Origin: Candidatus Bathyarchaeota archaeon
GTDB taxonomy: Archaea; Thermoproteota; Bathyarchaeia; 40CM-2-53-6; CAVXDP01
Length of the DNA stretch: 64,000 nucleotides
Direction of reading: 5' to 3'
Assembly (NCBI GenBank): GCA_963760485.1
Contig: CAVXDP010000008.1
Coordinates: 17,209 to 81,208 of the forward strand
This document shows positions 1-64,000 of this stretch, in pieces. The notes under the pieces are model-generated. The model did not search any database and was not told the DNA's origin. It saw only the letters and a program-made list of their open reading frames with translations. Each line of letters opens with the position of its first letter. Position 1 is the first letter of the stretch. The translations under genes were made by a program, and so were the position numbers.

Positions 1-627
1 GACAAGGACGACGAGCCCAATGTTGCCCTTCTGGTAGTTCATAAGATAAGATCCCAAGTCACATATCGTATAGGCAAATTTCTCATCTGCCATTTTCAAT
101 GTGGCGGTCATGCCCGATCCTGCTTCGAAATACCATGCCTCATTTCTAAGTGTAGTAGAGCTGTACCCAGCTGTCGTCCACAGACGTTTCTCTTTTGAAT
201 GCGTGCCTGACCCGTCTCCTCGAGAAACCCATAAAGCGTATCCGGCATCGGCACGGATCTTGATTTGCCTCATGGCATCGAGTGTATTTAGTCCTTTGAT
301 TCTTGCGGGGTCATCGGCTGGACCAACTATGACGAAGAAGTTGTAGGCGACTATTTTCCTGTTTACACCATATCCATCATTAAGGAATTTGAGTTCACTA
401 GGGGGATCGTGCACGAGAATCATGTCCGCGTCACCTCTCATTGCTGTCTGTATCGCCAGGCCTGTGCCTTGCGATATGAACGAAACGTTGATGTTTGGGT
501 ATCGGCTTTCGAAAGCGGTCTTCACGACATCTAGGAAGCCGGTTTCGTAGAAGCTTGTTGTTGTAGAAACGATCAAGTTTGCGTGTGCACCAGGGCCGAT
601 GGACGTCGTTGTCCCAGAGCTAGTCAT
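1..627 (-). CDS. WtpA/ModA-like tungstate/molybdate ABC substrate-binding protein (partial; runs off window start)
   Basis: Reverse-strand translation gives MTSSGTTTSIGPGAHANLIVSTTTSFYETGFLDVVKTAFESRYPNINVSFISQGTGLAIQTAMRGDADMILVHDPP...WVSRGDGSGTHSKEKRLW, a typical WtpA-family fold signature. A 50-aa signal-anchor ORF (776..627, MSAKTSSTKMKAAAIVIIILITAIGVYAYY...) lies in a different frame immediately upstream, so the gene appears split by a 1-bp indel. Confidence 0.7.
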   Translation of the reverse strand, partial: MTSSGTTTSIGPGAHANLIVSTTTSFYETGFLDVVKTAFESRYPNINVSFISQGTGLAIQTAMRGDADMILVHDPPSELKFLNDGYGVNRKIVAYNFFVIVGPADDPARIKGLNTLDAMRQIKIRADAGYALWVSRGDGSGTHSKEKRLWTTAGYSSTTLRNEAWYFEAGSGMTATLKMADEKFAYTICDLGSYLMNYQKGNIGLVVLV

Positions 628-879
628 CTCGGACATGTTGGTGTTGTTGAAACGGCTATTGGTTGTGTTCCCTGACCGAGTCTAGCATAGTATGCATAGA
701 CACCTATTGCAGTGATCAGAATAATGATTACAATTGCAGCAGCCTTCATTTTCGTTGAAGAAGTCTTAGCGCTCATATTGTTCACCGTTATGTTCTTCGG
801 TATAGATCGACTTCCGTATTTAAGGGTAGTCTAATATGTAGATCGAACATAACCAGTTGAGCTACGGTGAGACATCTAC

Positions 880-1431
880 TTGGCGAGGAAGCTCCTTCCA
901 TCATTTAGGATCTGGCTGGGAAAAGATCATGAGTATGTTGTGGGCGAGGGGGGCGCATCTCTGCTTAGGGCAATCGAGAAATACGGTTCTATTTCCGAGG
1001 CAACCAAACGCGTGGGAATATCTTACAGGTATGCTTGGGGGCAGCTTACAGATATAGAAAAGGCGTTAGGTCAAGCTCTTCTCAAAACGACTAAGGGTGG
1101 AAAAGGTGGAGGAGGTGCAGAATTGACGGAAGCGGCTGTCGCGTTACTCGAAAACTACGAGAGAACCAAGAGATATGTTGGGAGTGTTTTGAAGGATGAA
1201 GAATACTGGGAGGCGATAGGATTGAAGTTGAGTGCAAGAAACCGGATCAAGGGAACCGTTGATAGTGTGGAGAAAGATGCAATTACGTCGAAAGTCAAGA
1301 TCAAGATTGAAGCTCCATTCACGATTACCGCGGTCATCACTAAAGAGGCCGTGGAAGACCTAAAGATAAAACCCGGAGACAAGGTTGAAGCAGTGATAAA
1401 ATCAACAGAGATCATGGTAGCAAAGGAATAG
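880..1431 (+). CDS. ModE-family regulator (N-terminal HTH + C-terminal TOBE/Mop molybdate-tungstate binding domain)
   Basis: The N-terminus EGGASLLRAIEKYGSISEATKRVGISYRYAWGQL matches the ModE HTH region. The C-terminal 70 aa (RIKGTVDSVEKDAITSKVKIKIE...GDKVEAVIKSTEIMV) are a TOBE domain. The gene is divergent from the WtpA-like gene. Confidence 0.75.
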   Translation: MARKLLPSFRIWLGKDHEYVVGEGGASLLRAIEKYGSISEATKRVGISYRYAWGQLTDIEKALGQALLKTTKGGKGGGGAELTEAAVALLENYERTKRYVGSVLKDEEYWEAIGLKLSARNRIKGTVDSVEKDAITSKVKIKIEAPFTITAVITKEAVEDLKIKPGDKVEAVIKSTEIMVAKE

Positions 1432-1692
1432 AAATAACTCACGTTGAGTCTCTGACAAATCCTAGAAATCTTGGGCGCGAGGCTCGTGCTCTCTTAGGCT
1501 CGTTTTAAGGCTGGAGGAATCTTGCCATAATCCCAACCCAAGAGCACGATCCTCTTAGTCGTGGTGAACGACTTGCCTATATGTTCAGACATACATATCG
1601 GCATTTAAGACTATCGATATCTGGAATGGTCTTTCAACTTAGATTTTGAGACTGAGGATTAGTCGAAGGCTTCACGAATCCGAGAGGCGATA

Positions 1693-1763: not shown

Positions 1764-4700
1764 ATGAGTAAGAAAATTACTGCAGCATTTCTAGTATTGC
1801 TCTTTGCACTCTCAACAGTCCTAATTGCAACTCCAGTGCAAGGCCATTTTACACTTGGGCGTCCAACAAGTACAGTGCCTTATCGCGTACGTGATTTTGA
1901 CCCGCATGTTCCAGGTCCAACAGGTTATGTTTGGCCTGGATCAGGCGTAGTGAGTCTTAAGCACCGTACCCCAATCCGGGTAGTGGCGCTCCAAGCCCAA
2001 TAACTTGGGCTCAAGGACCATACCTTCCACCTGGATATCAGTCACCATGGAGCACGAACCCTCCAGGTGCTCAAAGTAGCTGGTACCAATTGGCTGGCAA
2101 CGCTTACGCACCTTTCGGAGCGATTCTAACCAGCACTGAAGATCATGACAACGTCGGTGACCTAATCTTTGCAATCAACTTCACAGGCACCCCTCCTACT
2201 ACAGAGGACTATCTCTATCACAGCCTCACAATATACTTGCCACCTGAATTCATTCCACCTGTAGACTGGGCAGCACCAACTGGTGACACGTCAAACATCG
2301 TGACAACCATAACAAACAATTACCTTCAGATTTCAGTTTGGAAGGCTGGCGTGAAAGATCCGTTCGGACCTGGATGGTGGGTCATATACATAAACCCCTG
2401 GTTGGGCTTCAGGAGAGATGGTAGTGCTAGCAGTGGGATCAATGTACCAGCGAACTATGGAAGGAATCCACGTGGAATCCTATTTAGCAAGTCGAACAAC
2501 TATGACGAGTGGTACTATGTACGAGTCAATGCGCATGAAAGCGCCAAGGATAGCCGGACGATACCAATTCAAGATGTTCCTCAGTGACAATTTTCCAGTA
2601 ACCAATGCGGTAAATGCTGACGGAACCCTCAACCCGATAGTTAGCACAATCCCTGCTGAGAACTGGCCAGTAATGCTTGTGAAAGGCGAAGTTGACCCAG
2701 GCATTATTGAAGGTACAATTCGCTATGGTTCATGGAACCAAGCATTATACAATTTGCCAATTCAACTTCCAGGCCGTGTAAGAGCGGTTGGAGTTGCAGA
2801 TGATCCATATACAGGCGCAAGCACAGGCCGCATGGTTGAAGCTCGTGGATACTTTAACGCTACAGCGAAGGGTCATTATGAGGTTGAAGGCATCGCTCCA
2901 GGTGTCTACGACATTTATGCGAGTGCAGCCGGATACCCAGAAATGAAAGTCGCAAGTGGCGTGAAGATTATCGCAGGCAAAAGTTTCCACGCAGACTACC
3001 TACTGCAACCAGGACCAATCATTACAGGCGTACTCTACAGTAAACATAGCTTCGGTGAAGTTCCATGGCCAAGCACAAGACCAGTCACAGTTGAAATTTA
3101 CGATAGTAATGAATGGCCATCAGCGAAGCCAGGCTACGATTGGGATTCAGCTGGAATGACATGGGAAGCCCAACACCTAAAGAGTTTCTCACCAATCAAC
3201 TTGACCGACTCACCATACACAAGCTACGTAACTGGTAACGTAATCTACGATCCAGGTAAAGGCTATGCAGACCTCAAGACGAGTGCGGGTAACCTACCAA
3301 AACTAGTTGCATTTCCATGGGAAGGCCCAAAGAGTATAGATCCACCTGTGATTACGTGGATCAACGGACAACCAGTAGCAACTGAATACCAAACAGAAGT
3401 CGGGGCTGGGGATACAACTACTGACAAAGACGTCTTCGGTTTGTTCAACGGTGTCGGACCAGCACAGTACTGGTGGGTTGACAACCTAGGCGCTTACACG
3501 AATGGTGGTGGAACGAATAGTTTCCGCTATCAATTCGGAATCAAAGGCTTCTATGGTGCACCAATGGAATTTGATGGTCACGTTCCACAAGTCTATGCGA
3601 CTTGGGTTAACGGTATGACCGCAGGCCAATACTACACTCGCGGTTGGATCAACGGTTACGTCCAAACAGACGTTAGCGGCACATACGTGGATTATCCATT
3701 CACGGTTGCAGCTGATGAATGGGCAGGTGACATTAACACTCCAATGGATCTTGAAACAGCAAGCTGGATAAACAAGACCGTACACTTCCACGATTTACCA
3801 GGAACACTGCAGACAAGTCCGATTAGGGGACCAGACCCGTGGAGGTATTTGATCGCTGAAGCATACGACGCAGACAATGTACTTGTGGCAATGAACTTCA
3901 CGCAAGTTCCGGCAACCTACACTGATGCTAACATAACATTGAACGGTTTCGGGATGGCGGGACCCGTTGTCCGAAACTACGGTGAGCAGAATGATGGAAC
4001 GAGAGGCCCAGGTGTTCCAAATGGCATGAAATTCTCCATGTACAGGTACCGCAATATCCGTGACTATGGCATTATGCCAGGCACGTACAGCATTCGCGTC
4101 TACATGCGTGGTTATGTACAACAAGAATTCGAGATGGCTTCAATCAGTCTAAGCCAAAGTCCAGCTTTGATCAGCAACCACATGTACCGTGGAGCAGGAA
4201 TCAACGTAACAGTATACAGCATAGACTGGGAGCACCCGCGGACAGACAAATATTGGACATTCTCCGGTGACGACGTACGAGTGTACGTACTCAACAGTGC
4301 AGGCACTAGCATGAACTACATCAAGTACTTCTCTAATACCCAAGCCCAGCCTAGGTGGAGTACTCCAGGCCAGAAGGCAGGCGTTACAACCATTCCGTTC
4401 GCAGGTACCCCGTATACTGATGCCGGCAAAAGCAAGCTAAAGTACAACGGTTCTTGGGAAGTGGACAGCTGGGGACCAGATGCTGAAGGTTGGCTACCAG
4501 GATATTACTATGATACTGACTGGTACAAGTACCTGTACACCGGCAGTACATTCTCAACTGGTATTGCACATCACGCATGGGGATTTGACGGCACTGCTAC
4601 CAAAACAGACGCACAGACCGGAATATGGCTAGAGTTTGGTTATGACAAGTATGGATTCCTTGCAAACCCAGGCAGATATCGCAACGCAGACCGAAGCACG

Positions 4701-5811
4701 AAACTTGCTCTAGAAACCGGCACATATACACTGAAAGGATACACTCTGGGTTACGTCCAGAAGAAGGACATCACAGTCTACGCTCAGAAAGGACAACAAT
4801 CAGATACAAAGCTTAACCTAGCTCAAGGCGTCAACATAACAGTTAACATCAAATTCAAGAAAGAAGGCATTTTCAGTGAGCTACCATACAACTCATCTTT
4901 CAGAATCAGAGTGTTCGATGACAATGGGGCACTAGTAGCTACATGGTTTACAACGTCGTATGACAAATCCGGCTTCTACACGGGGGTCATACAAGACGGC
5001 ATAAAAGCGTATGGTGGTTATGGCACAGGAAAAAAGCCCTACAGTAGCAGTTTGCCAAATGCTGGCGCAGACAAGAACTGGGTCGAAGATCACACAAATG
5101 AGTTGCAGGTACTATTCGCGGGGAACTACCTATTCCAAGAAATTGACCAATATGCCACGGTTCCAAAGGACAACAGATGGAGTACGTTCTATGGCATAGA
5201 TGGATGGCCGAACTACCAAGGCAACTACCACGTTGAAGTCGATGCTGTAAACCTGTACCAGAGCACTCAATCCTTCCCAGCTCCACAAGGCCTACTAGCT
5301 CGGTGAAAGCTACCACATAATCAACGGCGTCGAAGGACCATACCAAGGCGTATGGAAATTCAACCACCTAGGCCCATGGGAGCAGAAGATGGCTATTACG
5401 GTACCCAACGCTCATCTAGGTGCTGAAGCAAGTGTCGTCTTTGAACTTGACCTACGTGGCCTAGTCTCAGGACAGATTGCAGGTTTCAGCTGGAGCGATG
5501 AACTTCGGCCAACAAGCTGGGCATCAATCACAGCAGCAGGAGCAGGCGGAACCTTCACGGTATACTCGGCAGACGGATACTATGACATGTACCTTCCAGC
5601 AGGCACCTACGAATTCACAGTCATGGAATCGCCAGGACACGCAACGAAGAGTTCAAGCATAACCGTTAGCACAGGCCAAACAGTAACAGGCTACAGCTTC
5701 TACCTAGAACGAACCAACGTGCCAATTCCAGAATTTGGACCAGTCATAGCCCTCGTAGCAGCACTCGGAGCATCACTGTACATACTACGGAGAACCAGAA
5801 AAAGAGGGTAA
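1764..5811 (+). CDS. Large secreted cell-surface (S-layer-like) protein with C-terminal PEF-CTERM sorting signal, read across 3 apparent frameshifts
   Basis: Segments are 1764..2003 (signal peptide MSKKITAAFLVLLFALSTVLIATPVQG), 1961..2587, 2418..5306 and 5299..5811. Adding one C at the C4 run 1967-1970 joins the first two segments. Removing one base near the AAA at 2538-2540 joins the next. A 1-bp shift near 5296-5304 joins the 962-aa body to the tail ...PIPEFGPVIALVAALGASLYILRRTRKRG (PEF motif + TM helix + basic tail). The sequence is Y/W/G/T/N-rich, typical of archaeal surface proteins. Confidence 0.6.
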
Positions 5812-6683: not shown

Positions 6684-7810
6684 ATGAAACCGATCACGAG
6701 ATGCGACGGCCTATCGAAGAGCAGTTATGTGAGGCGCGTGCAGCTTACCGGACACGGTTCGTACATTGTTTCTTTGCCGAAAGCTTGGGTTGAGGAGGCA
6801 GGGCTGAAGAAAGGGGGTCAAGTGCAATTCAGCAGGCAGCAACAGGCAGCTTGTGCTGACTCCCTTTGACGCAGTGGTAGCTGAAGATGAAAGAATGAGT
6901 TGCTCGACAACAGTACCGCCAGACACTAAAGGCGACTCGCTGGCCCGCAAGATTATCTCCCTTTACATAGTTGGTTTCACAACGATTCAGATAGATTCAG
7001 AAACTGGAAACCTTCCTGCCTCCGTCCGAGATGTCATCAGAGAGACAGCTAGAAACAAACTCGTTGGAACTGAAGTAGTCACTGAATCGTCTCGGAGCGT
7101 CCTGCTTCAGGTATTGTTGACGTCTCCGCAGCTAATGGTGACTGACGTTTTGAGACGAATGGGTACAATTGCGATATCGATGTTGCAGGATTCGATTACG
7201 GCGTTATCGAGCTTAGACGCGGAACTAGCTAAGCAAATCGTAAAGACTGATGATGAGATCGACAGGTTCAGCATATACATAATCAGGCAATTGAAGTTAG
7301 CTGTCCAACACCCGTCCTTTCTTGAAAGGGTTGGGCTCGCCTCTTCGGTAGAATGCCTTGCTTATCGGATTCTCTTCGGTAGAATGCCTTGCTTATCGGA
7401 TTACTACAAAGAGCATCGAGCGATCAGCAGACCACGCAGCCAGAATCGCACGAAACTCCTTACTGATTCGCAAACAGCTTGACCGTAATCTTGTCGAACG
7501 TCTCAAGACACTGAGCCAACAGTCTTCTGAGATGATGGATAACGCGCTGAAAGCTCTCTTTGCTAGTGACTATCAATTGGCCGAGAATGTTCTTCAGGGT
7601 AAAGAAGGAATTTCGGCACTAGAACGCAGGTTCGTGGAACATCTGCTGAGGCAAAGACTGCCCGCAGGTGACCTGTCTGCTGTTAGGCTGATTTCTGAAA
7701 GCCTTCTAAGGATCGGAGAGTACGCCACCGATATAGCTGAGGTTGTGCTTAATCTGACGGTTAGAAAATCAGTCGAATTAAGGGTTGGACCTTCTCCAAT
7801 AGAGACCTGA
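6684..7810 (+). pseudogene. AbrB/SpoVT-PhoU family phosphate-uptake regulator, disrupted (1-bp indel + 31-bp tandem duplication)
   Basis: The N-terminus GSYIVSLPKAWVEEAGLKKGGQVQFSRQ is an AbrB swapped-hairpin, followed by PhoU-like helical repeats. Three ORFs are in three frames (6684..6869, 6853..7482, 7358..7810). Removing one copy of the perfect 31-bp repeat 7341-7371/7372-7402 restores ...SSVECLAYRITTKSIERSADHAARIA... Confidence 0.6.
7341..7402. repeat. perfect 31-bp direct tandem duplication (CTCTTCGGTAGAATGCCTTGCTTATCGGATT x2) inside the AbrB-PhoU gene
   Basis: Read directly from the sequence. 31 is not a multiple of 3, so it causes a frameshift. Confidence 0.9.
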
Positions 7811-7898
7811 GGATTCACAGAGTAGACAGCTCCATGATTCTCTCTTCTATTTCGTGCCTTATTCTTCGGATGGTCTTGCCTTTTGGCTCTTGGATGCT

Positions 7899-8135
7899 CT
7901 AATCGACAAGTCGCATATTGAATCGCGTAATAAGGGGCTTAGGACATGCTTCTTCAACCGAACATCCCATTGTTATTACTAGGTCAGCTTCGTCGAGCAT
8001 TTCTGTTGTAAGCTTCCTTGGCTCAGAATTAGAAATGTCGATACTCTTTTCTTGTGTGGCTTGAACGACAACGAGGTTAACAACCGAAGAAGGAATAGTG
8101 CCTGCACCAGATGCATCAAGGTCCTTCTCTTTCAT
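7899..8135 (-). pseudogene. ArsC / low-molecular-weight phosphotyrosine phosphatase family fragment (lacks N-terminal CX5R P-loop)
   Basis: ...IDISNSEPRKLTTEMLDEADLVITMGCSVEEACP resembles the middle of ArsC/LMW-PTP. The ORF starts 4 nt inside the end of pstA, so there is no room for the catalytic N-terminus. Confidence 0.4.
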
Positions 8136-21124: not shown

Positions 21125-22766
21125 TTGGGAAAAAATATGGCATCTGAAGGCACTTTCATAAGGAAAGCAAGTGGCTTAGTCCGCACAGTTCCTCCAATAG
21201 ATGCTTGGATATACAATTGCCTCACAATGGGATGGCTTTCAGTGGCCGCCTATAACTTACCCTTCAACCCGTTTGCTTTTCCTGGTGGAGAGCAGAGTAT
21301 TGCAATACTCATGACCGCGGCGTTTGGCACGTTCATGTGGACGACGTACATGTTCATTGTAAGCGCTCTTCCACGTAGCGGAGTTGACTGGATAGCCCAG
21401 AGCAGATTTCTCAGTCCATGGATTGCGTTCCCTATAGTGATCGGAGACTTTTGGTACTTGATATACTGGGATGTCTGGGCATACTGGTTCGCAACGAACC
21501 TAGGAATGAACCCGTTCTTCGTTACGGCCGGTGTAGCGTGGAACAATCCTGGCCTTCTAGCATTTGGAGAATGGGTGATAACACCAAAGGGCTATTTCAT
21601 CATCGGAATGATCTTTCTGTTTCTCATGGGATGGCAACTATCGCTTCCGATAAAGTTCTTCGCATCGATTCAACGCTGGTTGATGTACACCGCAACAATA
21701 GCCTTGATCGTGTACATACTTATCTTTCTAGGTACGAATCCCACGTCATTTGCGGAGAACTTCAACGGGTTTGCTTCAAAATTCATTTCTGATCCTGACT
21801 ATTACCACACGGTCATCAGCACTGCTGCTGCCAGGCGGTTACAATCCGAATCCCGGGTTCAGTTGGTACGATCAGATAGGATTAATGGCTATGATATGGA
21901 GCCTTCTAGGATGGGCGTTTTGGAGTGCACAGTTGAGCGGAGAGATCAAGAGTGCCGGAAACCTAAGAACTCAGAACTTAGTCATGAATGGTTCAGGGTG
22001 GGCAACAGCATTTGCTTGGCTCGTTGTCTGGCTCGTGTTCTCCAATGCCATCGACCCGACGTTCATAAAGTCCGCCGGCGCAGTTTTCTACACTGGTAAA
22101 TGGGCTCTGCCTCTCTCAAGCATAAACTTGGGCATGTACATCGCCGCGACCGACGCGAAATTGGGATCAGTAGTCATGGTTGCTCTGTTTCTAGTCATGA
22201 TAGGATTGCTCGCCAACGCCTATCAGGTCTACTACAACACAATGGTGGGACCGGTGAGGATGTTTTTCGCAATGGCTTTCGACAGAGGTCTACCGGACAA
22301 ATTCACTATAGTTCACAGCAAATGGCATACGCCCGTGTACGTCATCTGGCTAGCATGTGCATGTGCAGTCATTCAAATTTACATGTCTTCATATATGCCT
22401 AATGTTGCACCGGTATTCCTTCCCGCAGCGCTGTCGAGCGGATGCATCCCATACACATTCACTTCTCTTGCAGGAGCTGTAATGCCATGGAGGGGCAAAG
22501 CCATATACGAAGCGTCGCCTGCTGCCAAATACAAACTAGGTCCAGTTCCTCTGGTCACCATTACGGGGATTGTCAGCGTGATCTTCAACATTGTAATGAT
22601 ATACTACTGGTTAACTGATCCTGCGCTCGGAATCAACCCACAATCAATGATCTTCGTATTCTTCTTCTACATTGTTGGCCTTGTCTGGTACATCTACTGG
22701 CGCTGGCACAGGAAGAGACAGGGAATAGATCTCAGCCTATCGTTCAAACTCGTTCCACCCGACTAA
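21125..22766 (+). CDS. APC-superfamily permease (about 540 aa), split by an apparent frameshift near 21829-21833
   Basis: Two ORFs (21125..22099, 21750..22766) in different frames; both are multi-TM. It is a paralogue of the 29857..31480 gene, with the same N-terminus (...RKxSGLxRxxxPxDA...) and C-terminus (...FKxxPPD). Confidence 0.6.
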
Positions 22767-22792: not shown

Positions 22793-23032
22793 GAATGAAA
22801 AGACATGAAGCCGAAAACTTTGGAGGTGATGACGAGAAGTGGATAATGAAGACAAAGGAATGGCGGTCTTCTCGATAATAATGTGGATAATCATACTCGC
22901 TTGGGCGAGCTGTTGCCCCCTGAACCTTTCTATCACCCTGGAAAGAAAAAGAGCCACGATTGTCAAGCAATCAGCCAGAGACAAATTGGTAATTTATTAC
23001 TTTATCATCGGCAATGTTTACAATTGCACCTC

Positions 23033-23965
23033 TTAGTATAGACTCGCCGTATTCACTCCCAGGATTAAGACACAAGGTTCTTCCAATCTTTCTTGCACCT
23101 TTGGATTCATGAATATGTCCATGAAGCCCCAGTAAGGGCTGATGCTTCTCAATGGCATTCCTAATGGATTGGCTCCAGCTCCGTAAGTAAGTATCTGCCC
23201 CGCTTTGAAAATTGGTTGAGGTGGATAGACCGACGTATCCAGTTGAGGCGCATCATCCAATTCAGAATCCTTGGGTGGAATGTGAAAATTGAAAACAGCG
23301 TTCTTCACATCCTTTATTTCAGACACTAACTTGTCGACTTTTCCGCCAATTTCCTCATCGCTGCACTCTCTAGGAGTCTTCCAAGGCGTCGGGTTTCCCC
23401 AGCCCAAACTGGCCATCTCATGCACATCATCGATATAGACGACCTTGTTATCCGGATTCTTCACATGATCAGTATCCTTGATGAGGTCTACAATGTCCTG
23501 AGCGTCATCATTTCCACCAGTTATGTAACAGATTATGTTCGTGTCCTTCAACCTTTCATTTGCCAAATCAATCCATTTCAGTATTCTCTCTCGCATCAAC
23601 TGTCTGAATAATTCATCGAGCTTTTTTTCATCTGCTGAAACTGATTCATATTCATTTGTTTCCATAAGCTTAGTATAGGCTCCAGTAGTCAGTATTCGTT
23701 TTTCAAGATCCTTCAACTCTTCGTCTGTCTTGACCACCTGTTTCTGTTGGAGAAAATGGCTAACATATGTGCCGTCCGGTTGCTTCACTATTGGAGTTAT
23801 CATCTTGCCGGTAATGTCGCCACCAAGGACTAGAACATTTGCTTCATACACTTTTCCCGCATTTACGAACTTTTTGAAAGTCGGTTCGGAACCATGAACA
23901 TCGGTGGCGAAGAATATCCTAGTCTTCTTTTCCTTACTTTTCTCTTTTCCACCAAAGAGTGGCAA
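23033..23965 (-). CDS. calcineurin-like metallophosphoesterase
   Basis: DVHG, GGDITG, GGNDD, FHIPP motifs. Confidence 0.65.
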
Positions 23966-27535: not shown

Positions 27536-28776
27536 ATGAGTCTAAAAGGAAATGAAACGAGACTTGGTGTAGCAAGGGTCGCCTTGTTCGACCAGCCGAA
27601 ACGGATAATCTTCGCCACAGGAGCTGTGGAACAATTCGTTGGGTCTGAGACGAAACGTCTGGGGGGCAATAAGACACTCTTAGTAACTGACAAGGGTGTG
27701 AAGAAAGCCGGCATGGCTGACACGGTCTTAGATCTCATCAAGAAAGAGAATCTTAGCGTGGATGTATATGATAATCTCACGGCTGAACCAACAGCAGAAA
27801 GCCTGAGAGCCGCAGTTAAGTTCGCTCGGGAAGGCAAGTACGATGCGGTTGTTGGAGTAGGCGGAGGCGCGGTGCATGGACACTGCGAAGATGAGTGCTA
27901 TTTGTCTTACAAACCCGGGAGATCCAATGGTATACGTGAATCCTATGGAGGACAAGAGCAAGTATCCGGCTAAGCCCAAGATACTAATCCCAACCACATC
28001 TGGAACAGGAAGCGAGGCCTCGAACGCCGCCGTAGTAGTTGAAGGATTATACAAAACTTGGGCGGCAAACACCAACGTTTTTGCTGATGTAGCTATCGTT
28101 GATCCATTGATGGCAATTTCATGTCCACCGAAACAGACAGCTGGAAGTGCACTGGATGCTCTAAGCCACAACGTTGAAGGGCTGATTGATAGAGAAGCTA
28201 ATCCTCTGTCGGACGCTCAAGCTCTTGAAGGCTCAAGACTTGTCTTCAAGTACGCAAGAAGAGCTTTCCATGCTGGCGACGATCTAGAGGCCAGATGGAA
28301 CATGTCAGCCGCAGCGACACTCGGCGGAATAGTCATCGCTTATCCATGGATAGGAGGTCCAGCAATCCTTGGGCATTGCATTTCAGAAGCTCTTGGACCA
28401 CGATGGAATGTTCCTCATGGAGCTAGCCTGCGGTGTAGTCCTTCCATACATACTTCAGTTCAACCTGCCATCATGCATCAAGAAACTTGCGTATGTTTCA
28501 AAACAGGTACTGGGAGACGAAGTCTACGGTCTTTCACAACGTGAAGCTGCCTTTGCTTTCATTCATGCTGTGAAGACTCTCATGGAAGACATGGAATTGC
28601 CAACGAACCTCAAGCAATGGAATATTCCAAGCAAAGAACTGGATGAATTCGCCGAGTATATCTTCAAAGATCGCCAACACGTCTATTGTCTTCCAAGATT
28701 TAACCCGAGGAAGCTTACATCAGAAAACACGAAAGAACTGCTGCACTTGATGTATGAGGGAACCCTGCTAGAGTGA
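27536..28776 (+). CDS. iron-containing alcohol dehydrogenase, split by two apparent 1-bp frameshifts
   Basis: Three ORFs in frames 2, 0 and 1 (27536..27973, 27876..28544, 28369..28776). The first ends AVVGVGGGAV and the second begins MDTAKMSAI (consensus GGGSxMDxAK). Downstream come NVPHGAS then ACGVVLPYILQFN (consensus PHGxANAxLLPxVxxFN). Confidence 0.65.
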
Positions 28777-29856: not shown

Positions 29857-31480
29857 TTAATCTGGGGGGATCTGTTTGAATTGTAGTTCCATCGGGATGC
29901 CTTTCATCTTGTGGTATGCACGAGATACGTAGTAAATGATGAATGATGGTGCTATGAACATTGTTATGGTTATCCATATGTAGAATGAGCTTGCGAGACC
30001 GGTCAGGAATGGCAGTAGCATGGAGTAGTCTAGGGCAACACTGATAATGAAAGTCAAGAGCCCAAGTATGAAGAGAACTGGAACTCCGCCAATCTTCTTC
30101 TTGACGATCTCAGGCGATTTCTCGAATATCGCCTTTCCCCTTGATGTGAATGGAAAGACCATGCCGACAACTCCAACTATCGCCCATGCAAAGAACCATG
30201 AAAGTATCGTGTAAGCGATCCATGATGCTTGATAGATGAATATGTACAGGAAGATCTCTCCGATTATCAATCCAAGCAATACGGCTGCCCATGGTGATCC
30301 TCGTTTGTCTGTTTTAGCGAAGAAGGTTGGGAGGACTCTGTCGAAAGAGTACGCGAAGATATTTCGAACCGGTCCGAAGGCGGCTCCCATACCTGCGGCG
30401 AACCATGTGATTGCAGCCATGGCGCAAGAAAGGACCGCGTAGCCAGCATTAGGGTTCGCGTAGACAAGCATAAAACTTGGCACAGGCATAATGGTTCCCA
30501 ATGGCCACCCCTGCCAAGTTCCAAATCCTGCGCCACCCGGCGCGAAATATGATGCTCCGGAGCCCAGAATTCTCCGCTGAACCCATAGTATGCAAGGGAA
30601 TAGAAAAGCTCCCAGAATATGAATAGGAGTATTAATGCTCCCAGCATAGCTCGCTATAGCTGCCTTTCTTATCTCCTTCACTTCGCCCATTATATTCGCG
30701 GTGTAGGTTGATCCTAGAGTATTCAGAGCCACGAAGGTGATTCCAGCGCCGAGAGACACATTCATGTCGTATAATCCGACAGGCCATTTGGCAGCCTTTG
30801 CTGCATCCAAAACCGCTTGGTAAGTAGTACCCGACATCATGTTGAATCTTTCAATAAACGTCGGAAGCCCTCCGCCTGTAAGGACTCCAATGTCAAAGAT
30901 CACGAGGGAAAGGACACCGGAAATCACTCCAATCCAAGAAAGAATCATGGCCGACTCTTGCTCCTCTCCACATGATTAGGAATTCCACGACTACGAGAAG
31001 ACCACCTACTAGCATCATTCCAATAGGAGCGTCTATTGAGTTGGCGAGGAGCCAATACGGGTGGGTGCTAGCCAACTTTCCAAGCTCGGAAATTGCGATG
31101 GTTCTCAGAACATTGTTGATACCAAATCCGACAGCGAGGTATGTGAGGCTACCTGCCCATGAAGCTCCGATTGTGGTTAGAACCCAACCTGCAGAGAATC
31201 CCCATGCTGGAGAGAGTATGCGGCTCCCCCAAATGTACTCGCCTCCCGAGCGTGGCATAGCTATCGAGAACCAGATGTAGAGAAGGGCTGGAATGAACAT
31301 CAGTAGTACAGCCGGGATGACGGCGATCGGTACATTCACACCCGGATAAGCCTGATGTGTCCAGAGAAGAAGAATGTTGCAATTAGCAATGCCCGGCGTC
31401 ATGAATGCAAAGGCTAAGGCATCCCATGGTCCTATGACTCGCGTGAGCCCAGATGTTTTTCTGATGAAAACTTCCGTCAA
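29857..31480 (-). CDS. APC-superfamily permease paralogue, split by an apparent frameshift near 30945-30955
   Basis: ORFs 30893..31480 and 29857..30948 lie in different frames; both are multi-TM. Ends ...MELQFKQIPPD like the paralogue at 21125. Confidence 0.6.
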
Positions 31481-44667: not shown

Positions 44668-45359
44668 TTGAGACTGGTTGTAATCTCCGATATACATGCG
44701 AACTATGATGCTCTTGCCGCAGTGCTTCAGAAAATTCGTGACTTTGATTACCTAGTATGTCTAGGCGACTTGGTTGGATACGGCCCCCAACCGAACGAGG
44801 TCGTAGAGCAGATTCGTGATCTGAACCTAGAAGTAATTATCATGGGAAACCATGACTATGCAACGGTCACAGCTGATACAATAAATTTCGTTACACATGC
44901 AGCTCGAGCGATAGAATGGACGCGTCAAACACTCAAACCAGAAAACCTACACTTTCTATCGAAACTTCCACATTATGCAACCAAGACTCTTGGTGAGACT
45001 GTTGTCGCTTCTTATCATGGTAGCCCGAGAGATCCTCTAAATGAGTACGTCTATCCGGGGGAGCCTCAGTTCATGTTTCAAGCCCTAGTTGAAGAAGCCG
45101 CCGAAAGTTGCTGCTCTTAGGCCATACGCATATACCATTCCACTCATCCACTCCCTCTGGAGTTGTTGTTAACCCAGGAAGCATTGGTCAGCCTCGAGAT
45201 GGAGACGCCCGCTCAAGTTATGCCACAATAGAAATATCGAATGGCAACATCAACTGTTCGATTGAAAGAACCTCATACGACATAGAGTCAGCAGCGGGCA
45301 AGATTGTTCAAAAAGGCCTGCCAACATTTCTCGCTGACAGGCTATTTCTCGGAATCTAA
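44668..45359 (+). CDS. MJ0936/YfcE-type metallophosphoesterase, split by an apparent 1-bp deletion in the A-run at 45103-45106
   Basis: N-terminus MRLVVISDIHANYDAL...CLGDLVGYGP...MGNHD; second ORF LLLGHTHIPF...NPGSIGQPRDGD. The frames differ by one base. Confidence 0.65.
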
Positions 45360-48414: not shown

Positions 48415-48423
48415 AAGGCAACA

Positions 48424-53884: not shown

Positions 53885-54425
53885 GTGGCTAGTCACGAAA
53901 GGTAGAAGTTACCGAATTCCCAACGGGCAACCTTACACTAGAATGAAGTATATCCACGGGGCACCAGTATGTAAGGTACAGAAGTTCACCATGGGCGATT
54001 CCAAAGCAACCTATCAGTACAAGGTTTCACTTATTGCAGAGAGCCGAGTTCAAGTTCGACATAATGCTCTCGAAGCAGCACGGGTATCAGCAAACAAAGT
54101 GATGTCTGACAAGCTTGGCGAGACAGGATACCTATTGAAAGTAGTAACATATCCACATGTAATCTTACGGGAGAACAGAATGATCGCCACCGCCGGAGCG
54201 GACAGGCTGCAGGAAGGTATGAGGCGGTCATTTGGTAAACCGAATGGAAGGGCAGCGATAATAGAATTAAACACATCGGTTCTCAACATATACGTAAATG
54301 AATCGGGATTGGAGCACGCCAAGGTAGCAATGAAGGTATCATCATCAAAGTTGCCCATGGCCTGTAGAGTTTCTGTTGAGAAGATTGAGTCACAAGTGGC
54401 TAGTGTTCCTGCTCAACCAGCATAG
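53885..54425 (+). CDS. rpl10e: 50S ribosomal protein L10e (uL16); N-terminus recovered only by removing one A from the A3 run at 53898-53900
   Basis: The ORF-track product starts MKYIHGAPVCKVQKFTMGD. In-frame upstream lies ...GRSYRIPNGQPYTRMKY (consensus ARCYRYxKNKPYxKSRF) with no in-frame start. GTG at 53885 in the -1 frame gives VASHE, then 1 bp out of frame. Confidence 0.7.
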
Positions 54426-54524: not shown

Positions 54525-56922
54525 ATGCCAGCGAAAGATGAGAAATACGTTCTCTGGTTTGATGATCTTGGGAAGGATGAGGTTGCACTCGTAGGAGGCA
54601 AATCTTCAAGCCTCGGAGAAATGACGCAAAAAACCAACGTCGCAGTCCCGTATGGCTTTGCAACTACAGCCGCTGCATACAGGCACTTCATCAAACAGGC
54701 CAAACTAGATTCAAAGATTGCAGATGCTATGAAGGAACTAGTCGACCCGAACGATACCAGAACTCTACAGAAGGTTGGAAAGACGCTCAGGACACTGGTC
54801 CTTGAGTCGAAGATGCCGAAGGACCTTCACGACGAGATTGTAGCAGCCTATAAGCAACTTGCGAAGAAAAGTGGGGATCCAAGCCCATACGTGGCAATTC
54901 GTTCATCTGCAACGGCTGAAGATCTGCCGGATGCCAGTTTCGCTGGACAACAAGAGTCCTACCTGAACGTGTCAGGTGGAGATCAAGTTTCTGAAAGGGT
55001 TAAGGAATGCTACGCTAGCCTCTTCACGGACAGAGCGATATTTTACCGTGCTCAGAAAGGCTTCGATCATATGGCTATTGCTCTTTCAGGCAGCAGTTCA
55101 AATGATGGTATACTCGAAAGCAGCTGGAGTTATGTTTACGCTCAACGTCTCGAACGGAGACGAAAGCCAAATCCTGATAGAAGCGGCGTATGGACTCGGA
55201 GAATTTGTGGTGCAGGGAACCGTCACACCAGACGAATATTATGTGAATAAGAGCGATCTGAAAATTTCCAGCAAGAACGTTCCAGAAAAAACTCGTCAAC
55301 TTTCTAGAAAGTCCGATGGGGGCACGTATGAATCAGAGGTGCCGAGTGAACTTAGGATGAGACAGGTCATAACAGACGAGCAGATCAAGGAACTCGCGGG
55401 TTACGCTCTGGATATAGAGAAACATTACGGGCGCCATATGGATATAGAATGGGGATTGGACGATAGGAATAACAAGCTGTGGATACTGCAAGCTAGACCA
55501 GAAACCGTGTGGAGCTTCAAGAAAGGTCCGACGAAAGTTGAAGCTAAACCCTCCGTGCAGACTGAAAGAAAAGTCATAGTAAAGGGTTTACCCGCTTCGC
55601 CAGGAATGGCTGCAGGCAAAGCCCACGTTATAATGTCGGTTACCGACATTAACCAATTCCAGCAGGGAGAGCTCCTTGTCACCGAGATGACAGCTCCAGA
55701 CTGGGTTCCTGCCATGAGAAAGGCGAAGGCCATCGTAACCAATAGTGGTGGAACGACTTGCCACGCAGCCATAGTAAGTCGTGAACTTGGCATCCCCTGC
55801 ATAGTTGGAACAGCTAGCAAAGGTACACCGGGAACTAAAGCCATACAAAACCAATCAGAAATCACCGTTGATGCAGGGAACGGCGTAGTCTACGAAGGGA
55901 TACTGGAGGAAGCAGTGAAAGGACCTGAGGAACGTGGAATGGCTGTAGCTGTCGCAGCGGAATCATATCCAGTAACGGGAACAAAGATTCTCGTGAACCT
56001 CGGTGAACCTGAGATAGCTGAAAGGACCGCCAAACTACCATGTGATGGAGTTGGCCTAATGAGAGAAGAGTTCATTTGGGCATCAGACATCAACCAGCAT
56101 CCACTTCACCTAATTGAGATGGGCCAACCTCAGAAAGTTGTTGACAAACTGGCCGAAGGAATGAGGAAAGTCTGTGCCGCAATGAATCCAAGGCCAGTAG
56201 TCTTACGATTTAGTGACTTCAAATCCAGCGAGTATCGAGATCTAGAGGGTGGCGATAAGTATGAACCTGCTGAGCCATCCGCTCTTCTGGGATGGCGTGG
56301 AGCTTCAAGATACTACGATCCCAAATACACGGAAGCCTTCAAGCTTGAGGTAAAGGCTGTCATGAAAGTCCGCGAAGAGTACGGGCTGAAGAACCTATGG
56401 GTGATGTTACCCTTCGTTCGCACTCTCGAAGAAGTAAGAAAAGTCGTACAAATCATAGAAGGAGAGGGATTGAGAAGAGGCCCTGACTTCAAGATTTGGC
56501 TGATGGCAGAGATTCCAAGCAACGTAATACTGGCCGATCAATTCAACAAGTTCATTGACGGCTACAGTATAGGCTCAAACGATCTTACGATGCTCATTCT
56601 CGGCTGCGACAGGGATAATGCAACTGTGGGTCACATCTTTGACGAACGGGACCTAGCGGTGAAGAGGGCGATAAGACACCTCGTCGAGGTTGCTCATAGA
56701 GACGGCAAGACCGTATCCATTTGCGGCCAAGCACCGAGTGTATACGGGCCAGAATTTATCCGATTCTTGGTTGAGAGCGGAATCGATTCTATGTCAGTGA
56801 ACCCGGACGCCGTGGTGCAAGTTAGAAAATGGGTTGCAGGCATCGAGCAAAGACTGATACTGGAAAAGAGTTTGGGTCGAGGTGTACTGGAAGACTCACA
56901 GCTTGGATGGGACCCAAAGTAA
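54525..56922 (+). CDS. ppsA: phosphoenolpyruvate synthase (PpsA), interrupted by a 1-bp insertion at about 55089
   Basis: ORFs 54525..55250 and 54976..56922 together span 799 codons. Frame 0 ends ...DHMAIALSG and frame +1 continues (A)AVQMMVYSKAAGVMFTLNVSNGD...IEAAYGLGEFVV (consensus MAIALSVGVQKMVRSDKAGVMFT). The C-terminus has the PEP-utilising His domain and TIM-barrel. Confidence 0.85.
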
Positions 56923-59235: not shown

Positions 59236-59248
59236 AAGGGGATTTCTT

Positions 59249-59536: not shown

Positions 59537-59578
59537 AATATCTAACCAATCTCCTCGTTAGTTCAAGATGATGCCTAG

Positions 59579-59963
59579 TTGTCGCAAGGCATCTCTTCGA
59601 GCAACCGCCAATTTAGGGAAATACTTCAAAATCCCAAACTTGCGAGACTAGGGGACGCTTACGTCAATTTTCTACTATCTCTGGCCCTGACACAATTCAC
59701 TGGAACACCTGCAGGAATCAAAGTCAGCGACAAGATACTCTTTGAAGCGGCAAAAGAAATCGGGAATAAGAACCCTTCTTCCAAGAAGAATGAAGCGCGG
59801 ACAAATCGCCAACGTTGTCGAGGCGATGATCGTTGATTCTTGGTTGAAAAAATCTCTCAGCCTAGAAGAAATGTTGCAAATCATGATGAACGATCTGGAC
59901 AACTTGCCGAACGCCATAACCCGGCTCCTTAAGGAAATCATTGAGAGAATGAACAACAGCTGA
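59579..59963 (+). CDS. RNase III-domain-like small protein, split by an apparent 1-bp indel near 59765
   Basis: ORF A ...KLARLGDAYVNFLLSLAL... (RNase III signature-like xLGDAxL). ORF B in the +1 frame ...IRTLLPRRMKRGQIANVVEAMIVDSW (like ...ANVFEALIGAIYLD). Confidence 0.45.
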
Positions 59964-59968
59964 AACTC

Positions 59969-60556
59969 ATGAAAAAAGAGGTCCGAATCCTAGCTATTTC
60001 TGACGGCATATCCAAGCGATCATTGATCAGGCAGAACAGGGCAATCGTGGGAGTCGTCCTTCGCGGAGGTCATTGGCTCGAAGGCATAATGAAGACAATA
60101 ATCGAGAGAAATGGATGTAACGTTACCTCTCAACTTGTGAGAATGATCAGATCATCATCACACTTTCAACAGACGCGCCTCATCATGACGGACGGTCTGG
60201 CACTTGCGGGAGTGAACATTGTTAACATTAGAGCTCTTCACGAAATGACTAACATCCCAATTATTGCGGTTTCAAGGGGAAGGAAAGAAATGGGAGATCT
60301 AAGCGAGAAAATGAAGGGATTAGACAGACACACTTCGAGAGTAAGGGCTCTGAAAGCAGCTGGCCAACCAACTTCGCTGGTGCTGGAACCCACTAGAAGA
60401 CGAATCTACGCCTACTACTCAGGCCTAAACTCTACTGATTTGAAGAGTATAATGAGGGGATTCTGTGCGGCTGAGACTCCAGAACCAATTAGGGTGGCCA
60501 GGATCATTTCGTCCGCCTTCAACAGGCATCTCGTTAAACGAGTCCAAAAAGATTAA
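59969..60556 (+). CDS. DUF99/UPF0215 family protein
   Basis: MKKEVRILAISDG N-terminus; about 190 aa, typical archaeal DUF99. Confidence 0.55.
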   Translation: MKKEVRILAISDGISKRSLIRQNRAIVGVVLRGGHWLEGIMKTIIERNGCNVTSQLVRMIRSSSHFQQTRLIMTDGLALAGVNIVNIRALHEMTNIPIIAVSRGRKEMGDLSEKMKGLDRHTSRVRALKAAGQPTSLVLEPTRRRIYAYYSGLNSTDLKSIMRGFCAAETPEPIRVARIISSAFNRHLVKRVQKD

Positions 60557-60597
60557 ATTTCGCCGACAGAGAAAGATCGAGGTCGATTTCTAGGTAG

Positions 60598-60930
60598 TTG
60601 AGACTTATGCAATTCTGCTCCAAGTGTGGCACAGCTTTAGTCCTCGTAAGGAAAGAACAGAAGGTAGTCTTGAACTGCGCCAAATGTGGCCATGTCTCAG
60701 GCAAACCCGAGAAAGCCATCTCGAAAATGGCGCCGGACAAGGAGAAAATAGTCGTTATTGGAAAAGAGGAGCAGAAGATAAGGACTCTGCCAAAGACGAA
60801 GGTGGAATGTCCGAAATGTGGGCATTTCGAGGCCTTCTACTGGCTTGTCCAGACCAGAGGAGCAGATGAATCTTCAACACAGTTCTTCAGATGTACTCGC
60901 TGCGGAACCACATGGAGAGAGACATCTTAA
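60598..60930 (+). CDS. tfs: transcription factor S (TFS; RpoM-like)
   Basis: N-terminal Zn-ribbon CSKCGTAL...CAKCG; C-terminal CPKCGH...RCTRCG with the acidic-tip region (ADESSTQFFRCTRCG). Confidence 0.85.
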   Translation: MRLMQFCSKCGTALVLVRKEQKVVLNCAKCGHVSGKPEKAISKMAPDKEKIVVIGKEEQKIRTLPKTKVECPKCGHFEAFYWLVQTRGADESSTQFFRCTRCGTTWRETS

Positions 60931-61788: not shown

Positions 61789-61799
61789 GAGCAAAGAGA

Positions 61800-62840
61800 A
61801 TGCTGACGAAGACTGATCTTGCAAAATACCCTTTCACAGTCGAATCATCAGAATATGTCAAGAGCCTCAGGATAGGCGTCGCTGAGCTTACTACTGGAGA
61901 CTACGATCCGATTCTTGATAGGGCAGAACAAAGAATAAGCGAATCTGAGAAGGATGCTGTGGTCTCCCCAAGATGGCAGGATACCGACGTAGAGATCCTC
62001 TCATTCCCAACAGCCGTAATGTTAGTGAGCGAAATAGCGAACGAAAGAGTTTCGCGAAGATACGCCTTATCAGAATCAAAAAGAGCGTACGAACATCTGA
62101 GAGAGGAGACTTCCCAGAAGATTCTAGAGATAGCCATGAATACCTTCGGTTGGAGGATCGCACATCAACAAGACGGTGGAGACGTCCCTGATTCCAACTA
62201 CAGTATCCACTTCGTGGACTATCTAAGAAATGCAAAGGGCATTCGAGATCCAAAGTGGAAACTAATCAACCGCATACTTGAGAATGGGATTATTACTGTT
62301 GCAGGGGACGAGGTGGCAAGGCTTCTCGAGGAAGAGGTACAGCGGAAGGTATACTCACGGATCAGATCTCCATCCAATTCATTTCCCGAATCTCTCTCTC
62401 TACGTGTAAAGAGACTCAAAGAGAAGATTAACACGGGGAAAGCCTATTCATACCTAGAGATGCCTAAAGTGGTTCTTGCTGAGGCTATGCCCCCGTGCAT
62501 AAAAGCACTTAATCAAGCGTTGACGTCTCGGAAACACCTATCTCACATGGGCAGGTTCACTTTGACATCTTTTCTTCTAAATGTCGGAGTCAGCAGTGAA
62601 GATCTTGTGAAGATGTTTAGGGAGGTTTCCGATTTCAGTGAGAGGTTGACTCGATACCAAGTAGAACATATAGGTGGTTCAAGAGGCGTTAAGACTAGAT
62701 ACTCACCGCCCAAGTGTGATAACCTGAAGACTCACGGGCTTTGCGTAAACCCCGATGAACTATGCAGATCAGTGCGGCATCCCTTGAGCTACTATAAGAA
62801 GAAGATCTTCAGGAGGCGGATTCGGGCGGGTGAAGATTGA
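61800..62840 (+). CDS. priL: DNA primase large subunit PriL
   Basis: 346 aa; C-terminal Fe-S Cys cluster (CIKAL...C..C...C) and PriL-like helical N-terminus. Confidence 0.7.
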   Translation: MLTKTDLAKYPFTVESSEYVKSLRIGVAELTTGDYDPILDRAEQRISESEKDAVVSPRWQDTDVEILSFPTAVMLVSEIANERVSRRYALSESKRAYEHLREETSQKILEIAMNTFGWRIAHQQDGGDVPDSNYSIHFVDYLRNAKGIRDPKWKLINRILENGIITVAGDEVARLLEEEVQRKVYSRIRSPSNSFPESLSLRVKRLKEKINTGKAYSYLEMPKVVLAEAMPPCIKALNQALTSRKHLSHMGRFTLTSFLLNVGVSSEDLVKMFREVSDFSERLTRYQVEHIGGSRGVKTRYSPPKCDNLKTHGLCVNPDELCRSVRHPLSYYKKKIFRRRIRAGED

Positions 62841-64000
62841 AGAGTTCCTAGAAAAAAAGTTCAGAGAATACTACAGACAGAACTCACATCGAATGCAGCC
62901 ACCCCAGAAATTCGAAGAAAGGGAATTCGGGTTCGCCCACTTCAAGGATAAGATTATGGTACGCCACAGGCATTTCAATTCCATTAGTGAACTCAGAAAA
63001 TTCATAGAAGATACAGCACCTTCCGACGTATACCATTCAACGGCTTACTATTCGAACCCTGAGGAGGAAATGGAACGGAAAGGATGGCTTGGCGCCGACC
63101 TTGTATTCGATATAGATGCCGATCACATACCGACACCGTGCAAGAGACTACACGACCATTGGATCTGCAAGACATGTGGAACATCGGGAAAAGGCACTAC
63201 TCCACAGACTTGCCCTTCATGCAACGGCGAAAGATTTAACCAGCGTTCATGGGTCTGTGAGCTTTGCCTCAGAAAGGCCAGAAATGAAGCCATGAAACTT
63301 TCTGAATTCCTGATGGAAGACTATGGATTCTCGAAAAGAAATTTGAAAGCTTTTTTCACAGGCCATAGAGGTTACCACGTTCATGTTACGTCGGATACCA
63401 TTCTTAGTCTGGACAGTGACGAAAGGAAAGAGATAGTCGACTACGTTCTTGGCAACGGACTAGATCTTGACGCTATGCATATTCTTGAGAGGGATTCTTC
63501 TAAACCAAGTCTTCCTGAAAAATTGGATGAAGCAAAAGGGTGGAAGAAAAGAATTCTTCAGAGACTCATTGACGTCCTCGCGAATGGAGATCAGAGTGAA
63601 CTGGTTGGTCTAGGTTTCAGGAACACAGTAGCAAAAACGATCATTGAAATGAGAGATAATGCCATGGGATATCAAGATGCACGAAAAATGATAGGGACCT
63701 CTGACTCTCACGCCATGGGAAACAAGAGATGGGAAAACATTCTAAGAAGACTCATTGAAGACTGTTCTGCACAAATTGATACTGTAGTAACAACCGATTT
63801 GCATAGACTCATACGAGCGAAGGAGACACTCAACGGAAGAACCGGACTTCGTACCGTCGAAATCAGCGTTGAAGAACTAGAATCGTTTGATCCGTTCGAA
63901 AAAGCCATCGCATTTGAAGGTGGAGAGGAGAAGATTGATGTGGAAGACGTTCCTGAATTCAGACTCGGAGGATCGACATTCGGTCCCTGCGACAAAGGAC
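62830..64000 (+). CDS. priS: DNA primase small (catalytic) subunit PriS, partial (runs off window end)
   Basis: ...DVYHSTAYYSNPEEEMERKGWLGADLVFDIDADHIPTP... is the catalytic DxD region, with a Zn-knuckle CKTCG...CPSCNG. The likely GTG start at 62830 overlaps the priL stop. Confidence 0.75.
   Translation, partial: MKIEEFLEKKFREYYRQNSHRMQPPQKFEEREFGFAHFKDKIMVRHRHFNSISELRKFIEDTAPSDVYHSTAYYSNPEEEMERKGWLGADLVFDIDADHIPTPCKRLHDHWICKTCGTSGKGTTPQTCPSCNGERFNQRSWVCELCLRKARNEAMKLSEFLMEDYGFSKRNLKAFFTGHRGYHVHVTSDTILSLDSDERKEIVDYVLGNGLDLDAMHILERDSSKPSLPEKLDEAKGWKKRILQRLIDVLANGDQSELVGLGFRNTVAKTIIEMRDNAMGYQDARKMIGTSDSHAMGNKRWENILRRLIEDCSAQIDTVVTTDLHRLIRAKETLNGRTGLRTVEISVEELESFDPFEKAIAFEGGEEKIDVEDVPEFRLGGSTFGPCDKG

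Follow-up and report, generated by a model that had tools for sequence, protein, structure and literature searches.

The 64-kb window analyzed here, i.e., the whole stretch of 64,000 nucleotides (nt) from contig CAVXDP010000008.1 of a Candidatus Bathyarchaeota archaeon, contains 16 lesions located in 11 genes and one intergenic spacer; judged by comparison with related sequences, these frame disruptions are very probably errors in the sequence of a metagenome-assembled genome (MAG) and not genome decay. By type, about ten of the lesions are 1-nt insertions and four are 1-nt deletions; a stop-creating substitution and a 31-bp tandem duplication make up the rest. Together, they disrupt 11 of roughly 60 genes. 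About one gene in six is hence mis-called, including the genes for phosphoenolpyruvate synthase (PpsA), two permeases, an alcohol dehydrogenase, and a major surface protein, and an unpolished contig of this kind would mislead pseudogene counts, metabolic reconstruction, and claims of genome decay. For a further gene that had been listed as frameshifted, encoding ribosomal protein L10e (uL16), the likeliest explanation from the sequences compared is a conserved non-canonical ACG start codon.

Comparison with near-identical strains

Stop-free segments were enumerated in all six frames, neighboring fragments were scanned against Pfam, and junctions were then placed by homologs; a site was considered confirmed if the residues of a homolog ran on uninterrupted through the change of frame. 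Two comparators are nearly identical to the window. L001 is an independent, short-read-style contig of 22.6 kb (named k141_...) from another sample, which aligns with window positions 42553-60744 at 99.43% identity over 18,193 bp (100 mismatches and four gaps) and carries 22 of 22 genes intact in the 18.2 kb aligned; the SRP54 sequence of the window recurs unchanged in four other contigs, L001 among them. Contigs from ERZ27247924 and Logan ERR10755944, samples with this population, reach 99.4-99.98% identity. P0121 is an intact iron-containing alcohol dehydrogenase (Fe-ADH) protein encoded on a JGI contig; it shows 98% identity to the window gene (97-100% across three window segments).

The Fe-ADH gene (27536..28776, forward strand) has two insertions, a C at 27875 (gtg[C]atg) and an A at 28425 (gct[A]gcc). 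P0121 spans the three frames with contiguous residues, pinning both insertions to the base. In the window as assembled, the Pfam matches are split (Fe-ADH into positions 1-93 and 92-168, ADH_Fe_C into 1-93 and 93-191); the repaired product has 412 amino acids (aa), which is the ortholog length, and its domains are continuous.

Three of the four gaps in the alignment with L001 represent the lesions in an MJ0936-type metallophosphoesterase gene, in ppsA, and in an RNase III-like gene, and the fourth is intergenic. In the MJ0936-type gene (44668..45359, forward strand), the window lacks a C between 45103 and 45104, where L001 reads gccgccgCaaag (gccgccg[C]aaag); the Metallophos_2 match is split into positions 2-96 and 108-153 before repair and runs continuously from 1 to 153 in the repaired 230-aa product. 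The gene for PpsA (54525..56922, forward strand) carries an inserted G at 55089 (ttcaGcagcag in L001 vs ttcaGGcagcag in the window), and its repaired copy encodes 798 aa without stops; compared with the L001 copy, 12 codons differ synonymously and 2 non-synonymously. The RNase III-like gene (Ribonucleas_3_2; 59579..59963, forward strand) has an extra A at 59752, which turns A3 into A4; at least six further contigs (from JGI, Logan, and ENA) encode an exact copy of its repaired 127-aa product, and its 90% cluster has six members, each of 127 aa. The L001 copies of these three genes are intact, with 230, 798, and 127 aa, respectively. The intergenic difference is an extra T at 44095 (gac[T]agg, relative to L001). 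Near-identical strains are hence intact at all five coding lesions that they cover (27875, 28425, 45104, 55089, and 59752) as well as at the intergenic site. Coding sequence makes up 90% of the region aligned with L001 and contains three of the four indels; as selection would remove natural 1-nt indels from the genes of strains this closely related, the distribution points to unfiltered errors.

Lesions placed by more distant homologs

At every other lesion, homologs or orthologs (62-88% identity) have their full length and run colinearly across the site. Within the first 8 kb, the gene for a PBP_like_2 (WtpA/ModA-like) binding protein (1..800, reverse strand), which runs off the window and in which PBP_like_2 Pfam matches were found, has a 1-nt deletion-type break at about nt 642 (phase -1). 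Residues 2-52 of a 387-aa homolog (L012; tblastn, 77% identity) align with 794..642 in frame -3, and residues 53-266 with 642..1 in frame -2.

The gene for a surface protein with carboxypeptidase-regulatory-like domains (1764..5811, forward strand), which has a signal peptide and a C-terminal transmembrane helix, is broken three times, i.e., at 1958-1979 (phase -1), at 2531-2535 (+1, in aatGCGCatg), and at 5295-5299 (+1, in ctaGCTCgg), all on the forward strand; a change from C5 to C4 at 1967-1970 is a plausible but unproven cause of the first break. Three homologs (P0127, P0128, and P0129; 1319-1346 aa, approximately 70% identity, full length) are colinear with this gene in frames +3/+2/+3/+1, and three edits yield an open reading frame (ORF) of 1348 aa without a stop. 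A scan of contigs with the surface protein gave as its sole match a Bathyarchaeia relative at 46% identity, and a 923-aa fragment of the protein has a 100% database match only in the source contig. A 986-aa homolog (P0136) is encoded on a separate 168-kb contig (168,401 bp) of the same provenance (NCBI, ENA); its homology ends at about residue 960 of roughly 1330 and is followed by unrelated sequence, as in a frameshifted gene, which suggests that the error problem extends past the window.

The gene for an AbrB/SpoVT-PhoU regulator (6684..7810, forward strand) carries two lesions. The first is a frame break at 6840-6845 with a net shift of +1, where three homologs (L013, L015, and L018) switch frame at 6842-6845; it can be explained by one inserted nucleotide or by the loss of two (A4 to A2) in CAGCAACAGG, and with the latter, six homologs fit without a gap (FSRQQNR.L.LTPF). 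The second is a perfect 31-bp tandem duplication (7341..7402, forward strand; 2.0 copies), for which Tandem Repeats Finder reported a period of 31 and a 100% match, and which shifts the frame by a further +1. Residues 229-237 of the homologs match twice, on either side of the duplication junction, which indicates that relatives have a single copy, and the ORF is restored only after one 31-bp copy is deleted; the duplication could have arisen during assembly or polishing, or it could be a genuine mutation. Microhomology at its borders was not evident. While the AbrB Pfam match in the unrepaired gene stops at position 30 of 48 and is followed by PhoU, the repaired 365-aa ORF matches MazE/AbrB positions 1-42 of 48 and two PhoU stretches. 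A metagenome scan with the repaired regulator returned 80 loci, the best at 66% identity, and no near-identical copy for either 6840-6845 or the 31-bp duplication.

Just downstream, a gene for an LMWPc-like (low-molecular-weight phosphatase or ArsC-like) protein (7816..8135, reverse strand; Pfam match to profile positions 28-89 of 144) contains an in-frame TAG at 7899-7901. Homologs L014-L016 run through this TAG in one frame from 8132 to 7818 (LVD*SIQEP vs LVEWNIEDP); the stop occupies the position of a Trp (TGG) that is conserved in the homologs, and homology goes on for 27 further codons. Either a substitution error or a genuine nonsense mutation could account for the TAG. The protein is without the CX5R P-loop, as is its L014 homolog.

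Three further genes with disruptions are located between 21 and 32 kb. APC-family amino-acid permease 1 (21137..22766, forward strand) has a 1-nt insertion at 21831-21833 in the context gctgCCAggcgg (reverse complement GGCAGCAG); a 542-aa ortholog (L005, 88% identity) aligns with residues 1-232 in frame +2 and residues 231-542 in frame +3, and the repaired product also has 542 aa. A metallophosphoesterase-like hypothetical gene (22974..23965, reverse strand) has a 1-nt deletion between 23175 and 23174, at which the DNA alignment gives GCTGGTAGCC in L005 vs GCTGG-AGCC in the window. A 331-aa L005 ortholog (91% identity) matches with residues 1-281 in frame -1 and residues 265-331 in frame -3, such that the last 67 residues are out of frame. 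Finally, APC-family permease 2 (29857..31480, reverse strand) has a 1-nt insertion at 30956/30957; P0407 (540 aa, 62% identity) matches with residues 4-176 in frame -1 and residues 176-540 in frame -2, and the AA_permease Pfam match, split into positions 20-117 and 141-469 before repair, is continuous from 20 to 469 in the repaired 540-aa product.

Sequence error versus real mutation

Repair restored eight of eight genes to ortholog length (412, 542, 540, 230, 798, 127, 365, and 1348 aa) with continuous Pfam matches and no internal stops, the AbrB-PhoU gene requiring two edits and the surface protein gene three, and downstream of the lesions the frames are free of stops for up to 970 codons. 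The intact state of near-identical sequences, together with repairs that restore genes that look selected, argues for errors as opposed to decay or recoding. The initial annotation had likewise favored error over pseudogenisation, a view that our data bear out by the near-identical strains that are intact at six sites, by the edits that restore ORFs, and by selection that appears unrelaxed; comparison with the orthologous loci of close relatives, which had been proposed as a check, found the genes intact and in a single frame across the lesions. Of the 13 disruptions initially listed, 12 were real, at or within about 15 nt of the positions given for them, and the exception was L10e. Four lesions had not been listed, namely the 31-bp duplication at 7341-7402, the deletion at 23174/5, the TAG at 7899-7901, and the extra T at 44095; the description of the lesions as single-base events thus holds for the 1-nt indels and has to be extended by a duplication and a nonsense substitution. 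With regard to essential genes, damage was substantiated for PpsA, through the extra G at 55089, and not for L10e.

Real and recent pseudogenisation, through genome decay or in a mutator lineage, is improbable. Such an explanation could draw on the multiple hits in several genes (three in the surface protein gene, two in the Fe-ADH gene, and two in the AbrB-PhoU gene), on the presence of a nonsense codon and a 31-bp duplication, and on the regional clustering of the lesions. A strain with 99.4% identity, however, keeps each covered gene intact; the correct frames show no secondary stops over up to 970 codons; ppsA has 12 synonymous vs 2 non-synonymous differences; the broken products are known from a single contig only; and, as other signs of decay are lacking, this explanation would require a very recent origin for every one of the sixteen lesions in 64 kb. 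Across the 18-kb region aligned with L001, there are 42 synonymous and 28 non-synonymous differences, and signs of relaxed selection (secondary stops, an excess of non-synonymous changes, or truncations) were not seen in the repaired genes or in the PpsA comparison. Genomes of host-restricted bacteria undergoing reductive decay share with the window a high fraction of disrupted genes, but the window is without a build-up of stops, a non-synonymous excess, or lost gene ends, and the 99.4% identical strain is intact.

Recoding, by programmed ribosomal frameshifting or transcriptional slippage, would account for correct-frame products that look functional, and one lesion (59752) is located at an A-run. 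We consider it extremely improbable, as there is no common slippery motif, the shifts go in both directions in unrelated contexts, near-identical strains and all relatives use one frame, and conservation of a shift in independent assemblies was not seen. None of the lesions was found to be shared with close relatives or independent assemblies, i.e., L001, P0121, and the RNase III-like cluster are all intact.

A number of points weigh against attributing the lesions to sequence error. A near-identical comparator was not found at 642, in the surface protein, AbrB-PhoU, and both APC permease genes, at 23174, and at 7899, and the comparators represent other strains (99.4% identity) or other species and not the same cells, such that a real strain-specific lesion is conceivable at any single site. 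The lesions are unevenly spread, with seven in the first 8 kb and none detected in 8-21.8 kb; the case as a whole is one of sequence comparison; and the sequencing technology is itself deduced. In addition, the perfect 31-bp duplication and the change of TGG to TAG are not what consensus errors typically look like, and each of the two could be a genuine mutation. A mixed explanation, in which most 1-nt indels are errors and the duplication, the TGG-to-TAG change in the LMWPc-like gene, or both are real strain-specific mutations, is on the unlikely side but clearly more probable than decay of the region as a whole. Both are natural types of mutation, and relatives carry one 31-bp copy and a Trp codon, respectively. 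Both are, on the other hand, located in the most error-dense stretch (seven lesions in 8 kb), the AbrB-PhoU gene has a separate small indel as well, and a near-identical comparator covering either site was not found. Exact look-ups with the repaired products of APC permeases 1 and 2, AbrB-PhoU (three variants), Fe-ADH, PpsA, and the MJ0936-type gene returned no match.

Error spectrum and proposed origin

The initial annotation had placed the disruptions mostly at short homopolymers and named homopolymer-prone chemistry as one possible cause, neither of which agrees with the spectrum observed. Among the six lesions resolved to the base, only those at 59752 (A3 to A4) and 55089 (G to GG) touch a run, and the remaining four (27875, 28425, 44095, and 45104) fall between two different bases. 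Homopolymer involvement is ambiguous at three further sites (the C-run at 1967, the A-run at 6840-6843, and CC at 21831), and although the window has 593 runs of at least 4 bases, few of the lesions fall within them. Both insertions and deletions occur, as had been stated; by phase changes, they number about ten and four, respectively, and this insertion bias together with the location of most errors outside of runs speaks against homopolymer-prone chemistry. Homopolymer-aware correction alone would consequently be insufficient for a sequence of this kind.

Another earlier proposal, that the AbrB-PhoU and PpsA lesions fall in a common 8-mer (CAGGCAGC), was not confirmed. In ppsA, the 8-mer arises from the inserted G, and L001 has CAGCAGC at this site; in the AbrB-PhoU gene, the lesion is located at the junction of two adjacent copies and may be a different event from the PpsA insertion. 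A different motif does recur at lesions, as GGCAGCAG is present five times in the window and two of these five copies are lesion sites (55089 and, as the reverse complement, 21825-21832), a lesion rate far above background; the other copies are at 11296, 22519, and 38240. An extra G located 5' of CAGCAG is proven in ppsA and is consistent with the APC permease 1 lesion. These observations suggest that part of the error is context-specific or systematic, possibly through a methylation-linked systematic error at CAGCAG/GCAGC.

By exact look-ups, the proteins of the window belong to a single contig of 159,449 bp in NCBI and ENA. We propose that this is a Bathyarchaeia-like MAG contig that would carry residual base-calling or assembly errors at a density of about one per 4 kb. 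Such errors would be blind to coding and, where they fall in genes, would shift the frame, such that naive ORF calling would yield two to four pieces for each of 11 genes, in line with the earlier estimate of about 10 fragmented genes. The contig would have been assembled from long reads at modest coverage and would bridge a repeat of about 1 kb at which a short-read contig ends. We infer this long-read origin from the error spectrum and from the fact that L001 ends inside a repeat block (41.5-42.6 kb) that the window spans; the insertion-biased (about 10:4), mostly non-homopolymer spectrum would resemble that of a noisy long-read consensus and not that of a homopolymer-limited chemistry.

Residual indels in noisy long-read or low-coverage assemblies and in MAGs are a known cause of truncated proteins, and checks of protein-length ratios against references detect such errors. 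The window resembles these cases in its isolated 1-nt indels about every 4 kb, in genes that are split into adjacent ORFs, in the intact alleles that short-read assemblies of the population carry, and in a contig that spans a repeat that breaks short-read assembly. Unlike the usual residual indels, those in the window are insertion-biased and mostly outside of homopolymers, and they are accompanied by a 31-bp duplication and a nonsense substitution. With the homopolymer errors of 454, Ion Torrent, and older nanopore data, the window shares single-base indels, the change of A3 to A4 at 59752, and possibly a change of C5 to C4 at 1967-1970; it differs from them in that four of six base-resolved lesions fall between different bases.

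Start codon of the L10e gene

The L10e gene (53895..54425, forward strand) had been reported as disrupted at the A3 run at 53898-53900. We did not find an indel relative to the 99.4% identical L001, with which the region is identical over 53823-54000 and differs by one substitution at 54001, and the arrangement is conserved in four lineages. The gene carries no frameshift, and its putative start is ACG at 53895-53897 in the context AGGTGGCTAGTC-ACG, preceded on the forward strand by AGGTGG (53883-53888) and TTTATATA (53838-53845). Across the four lineages, represented by more than 20 independent contigs (from NCBI, JGI, ENA, and Logan), we found the TTTATATA box about 50 nt upstream of the ACG, AGGTG(G/A), a spacer of 6-7 nt, an invariant ACG, and AAA GGT (KG...). 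The ACG is located at the position of the ATG in more distant Bathyarchaeia homologs, which start with MKGRNYR.

The variable columns in the 35 codons from the ACG to the MGD motif number 6, 6, and 25 at codon positions 1, 2, and 3, respectively, and this third-position excess indicates coding constraint downstream of the ACG. Upstream of the ACG, lineages differ by 2-nt and 5-nt indels, and in one group (L103-L112) the frame is closed by a TGA three codons upstream of the ACG. Downstream of the ACG, the nearest canonical in-frame start in the L093 group is the ATG of MGD, 32 codons away, and in L103-L112 it is a GTG 25 codons away, from which a 145-aa call starts; the closest homologs of the L10e protein have been called short, at 160, 145, or 138 aa.

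On balance, we favor the interpretation that a clade of Bathyarchaeia has replaced the ATG of uL16 with a conserved ACG. Translation may then begin by near-cognate initiation at this ACG, which follows a Shine-Dalgarno-like AGGTG, or may depend on an mRNA in which the codon has undergone C-to-U editing. Initiation at the ACG itself would be the most economical reading of the alignments, with C-to-U editing to AUG as the alternative. It is likewise fairly probable that gene callers truncate L10e throughout the clade as a consequence of the ACG.

By contrast, it is very unlikely that the gene starts with the GTG at 53885 and changes frame at the A-run 53898-53900, be it through an error or a programmed +1 shift. 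In favor of this explanation, the GTG is conserved, and between the upstream stop and ATG 53943 the frame offers no ATG, GTG, or TTG. This GTG, however, lies within the conserved AGGTG(G/A) motif, and in the GTG frame the stop after AGG is limited to the lineage of the window; identity with L001 and an arrangement common to four lineages and more than 20 contigs argue against an error, and other Bathyarchaeia have M directly before KGR, a codon that is filled by the ACG.

Initiation on non-AUG codons is known for specific genes, e.g., on AUU for bacterial infC, and in plant organelles ACG starts are restored to AUG by C-to-U editing. The L10e arrangement resembles these cases in that a near-cognate codon occupies the ancestral ATG of a gene of the translation apparatus, with a normal ribosome-binding motif upstream, and differs from them in that the L10e ACG is known here from sequence alone. 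For Archaea, a review of start codons lists only AUG, GUG, and UUG (PMC4705826), and neither a report of an archaeal ACG start nor a paper on this MAG was found in the literature searched. If correct, either ACG initiation or mRNA editing would widen the start-codon repertoire of Archaea, and the L10e case illustrates that, where a core gene seems to have lost its start codon, the cause can be conserved biology and not error.

Distribution of lesions, rejected candidates, and other features

We did not detect lesions in 8-21.8 kb, which includes the Pst operon and ABC transporter genes, or in 31.6-41.3 kb. Several other apparent breaks were rejected, including 24752/25173, at which a separate ferredoxin gene is located beside AOR; the frame hand-overs at 36462/36676, 40391/40452, and 39858/39908, which are shadows of complete domains; and 31806, which is a normal stop after a complete CN_hydrolase. 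Also rejected as broken genes were 33904-34512, which looks non-coding, and the overlapping ORFs at 41772-42585, which are tandem-repeat artefacts. The window is archaeal and, by its gene content and best hits, falls within or close to the Bathyarchaeia; its G+C content is approximately 46%, and no tRNA genes or Rfam families were found in the 64 kb.

The intergenic repeat block (41510-42547, approximately 1.05 kb) is located just upstream of an HD-domain gene and is built of tandem units of 35 bp and 42 bp in which the core GGATGCTTAGAAGAG occurs 22 times, with the left part inverse to the right part; it is absent from the related species L005 and yields spurious overlapping ORFs. Within 42303-42422, two 42-bp units are 41 bp long or have small indels (AATGATACA for AATGAATACA and AGCC for AGGCC), irregularities that could represent further, non-coding consensus errors. 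Finally, about 13 kb (approximately 29500-42700), located between a thymidylate-kinase-like gene and the HD gene, is absent from L005 and has the appearance of an accessory segment with the repeat block as its boundary; its genes encode APC permease 2, a CN hydrolase, a ZIP transporter, an aldo-keto reductase with Fer4, and DUF3795 as well as a glyoxalase, a nitroreductase, a cyclophilin-like protein, and TauE.

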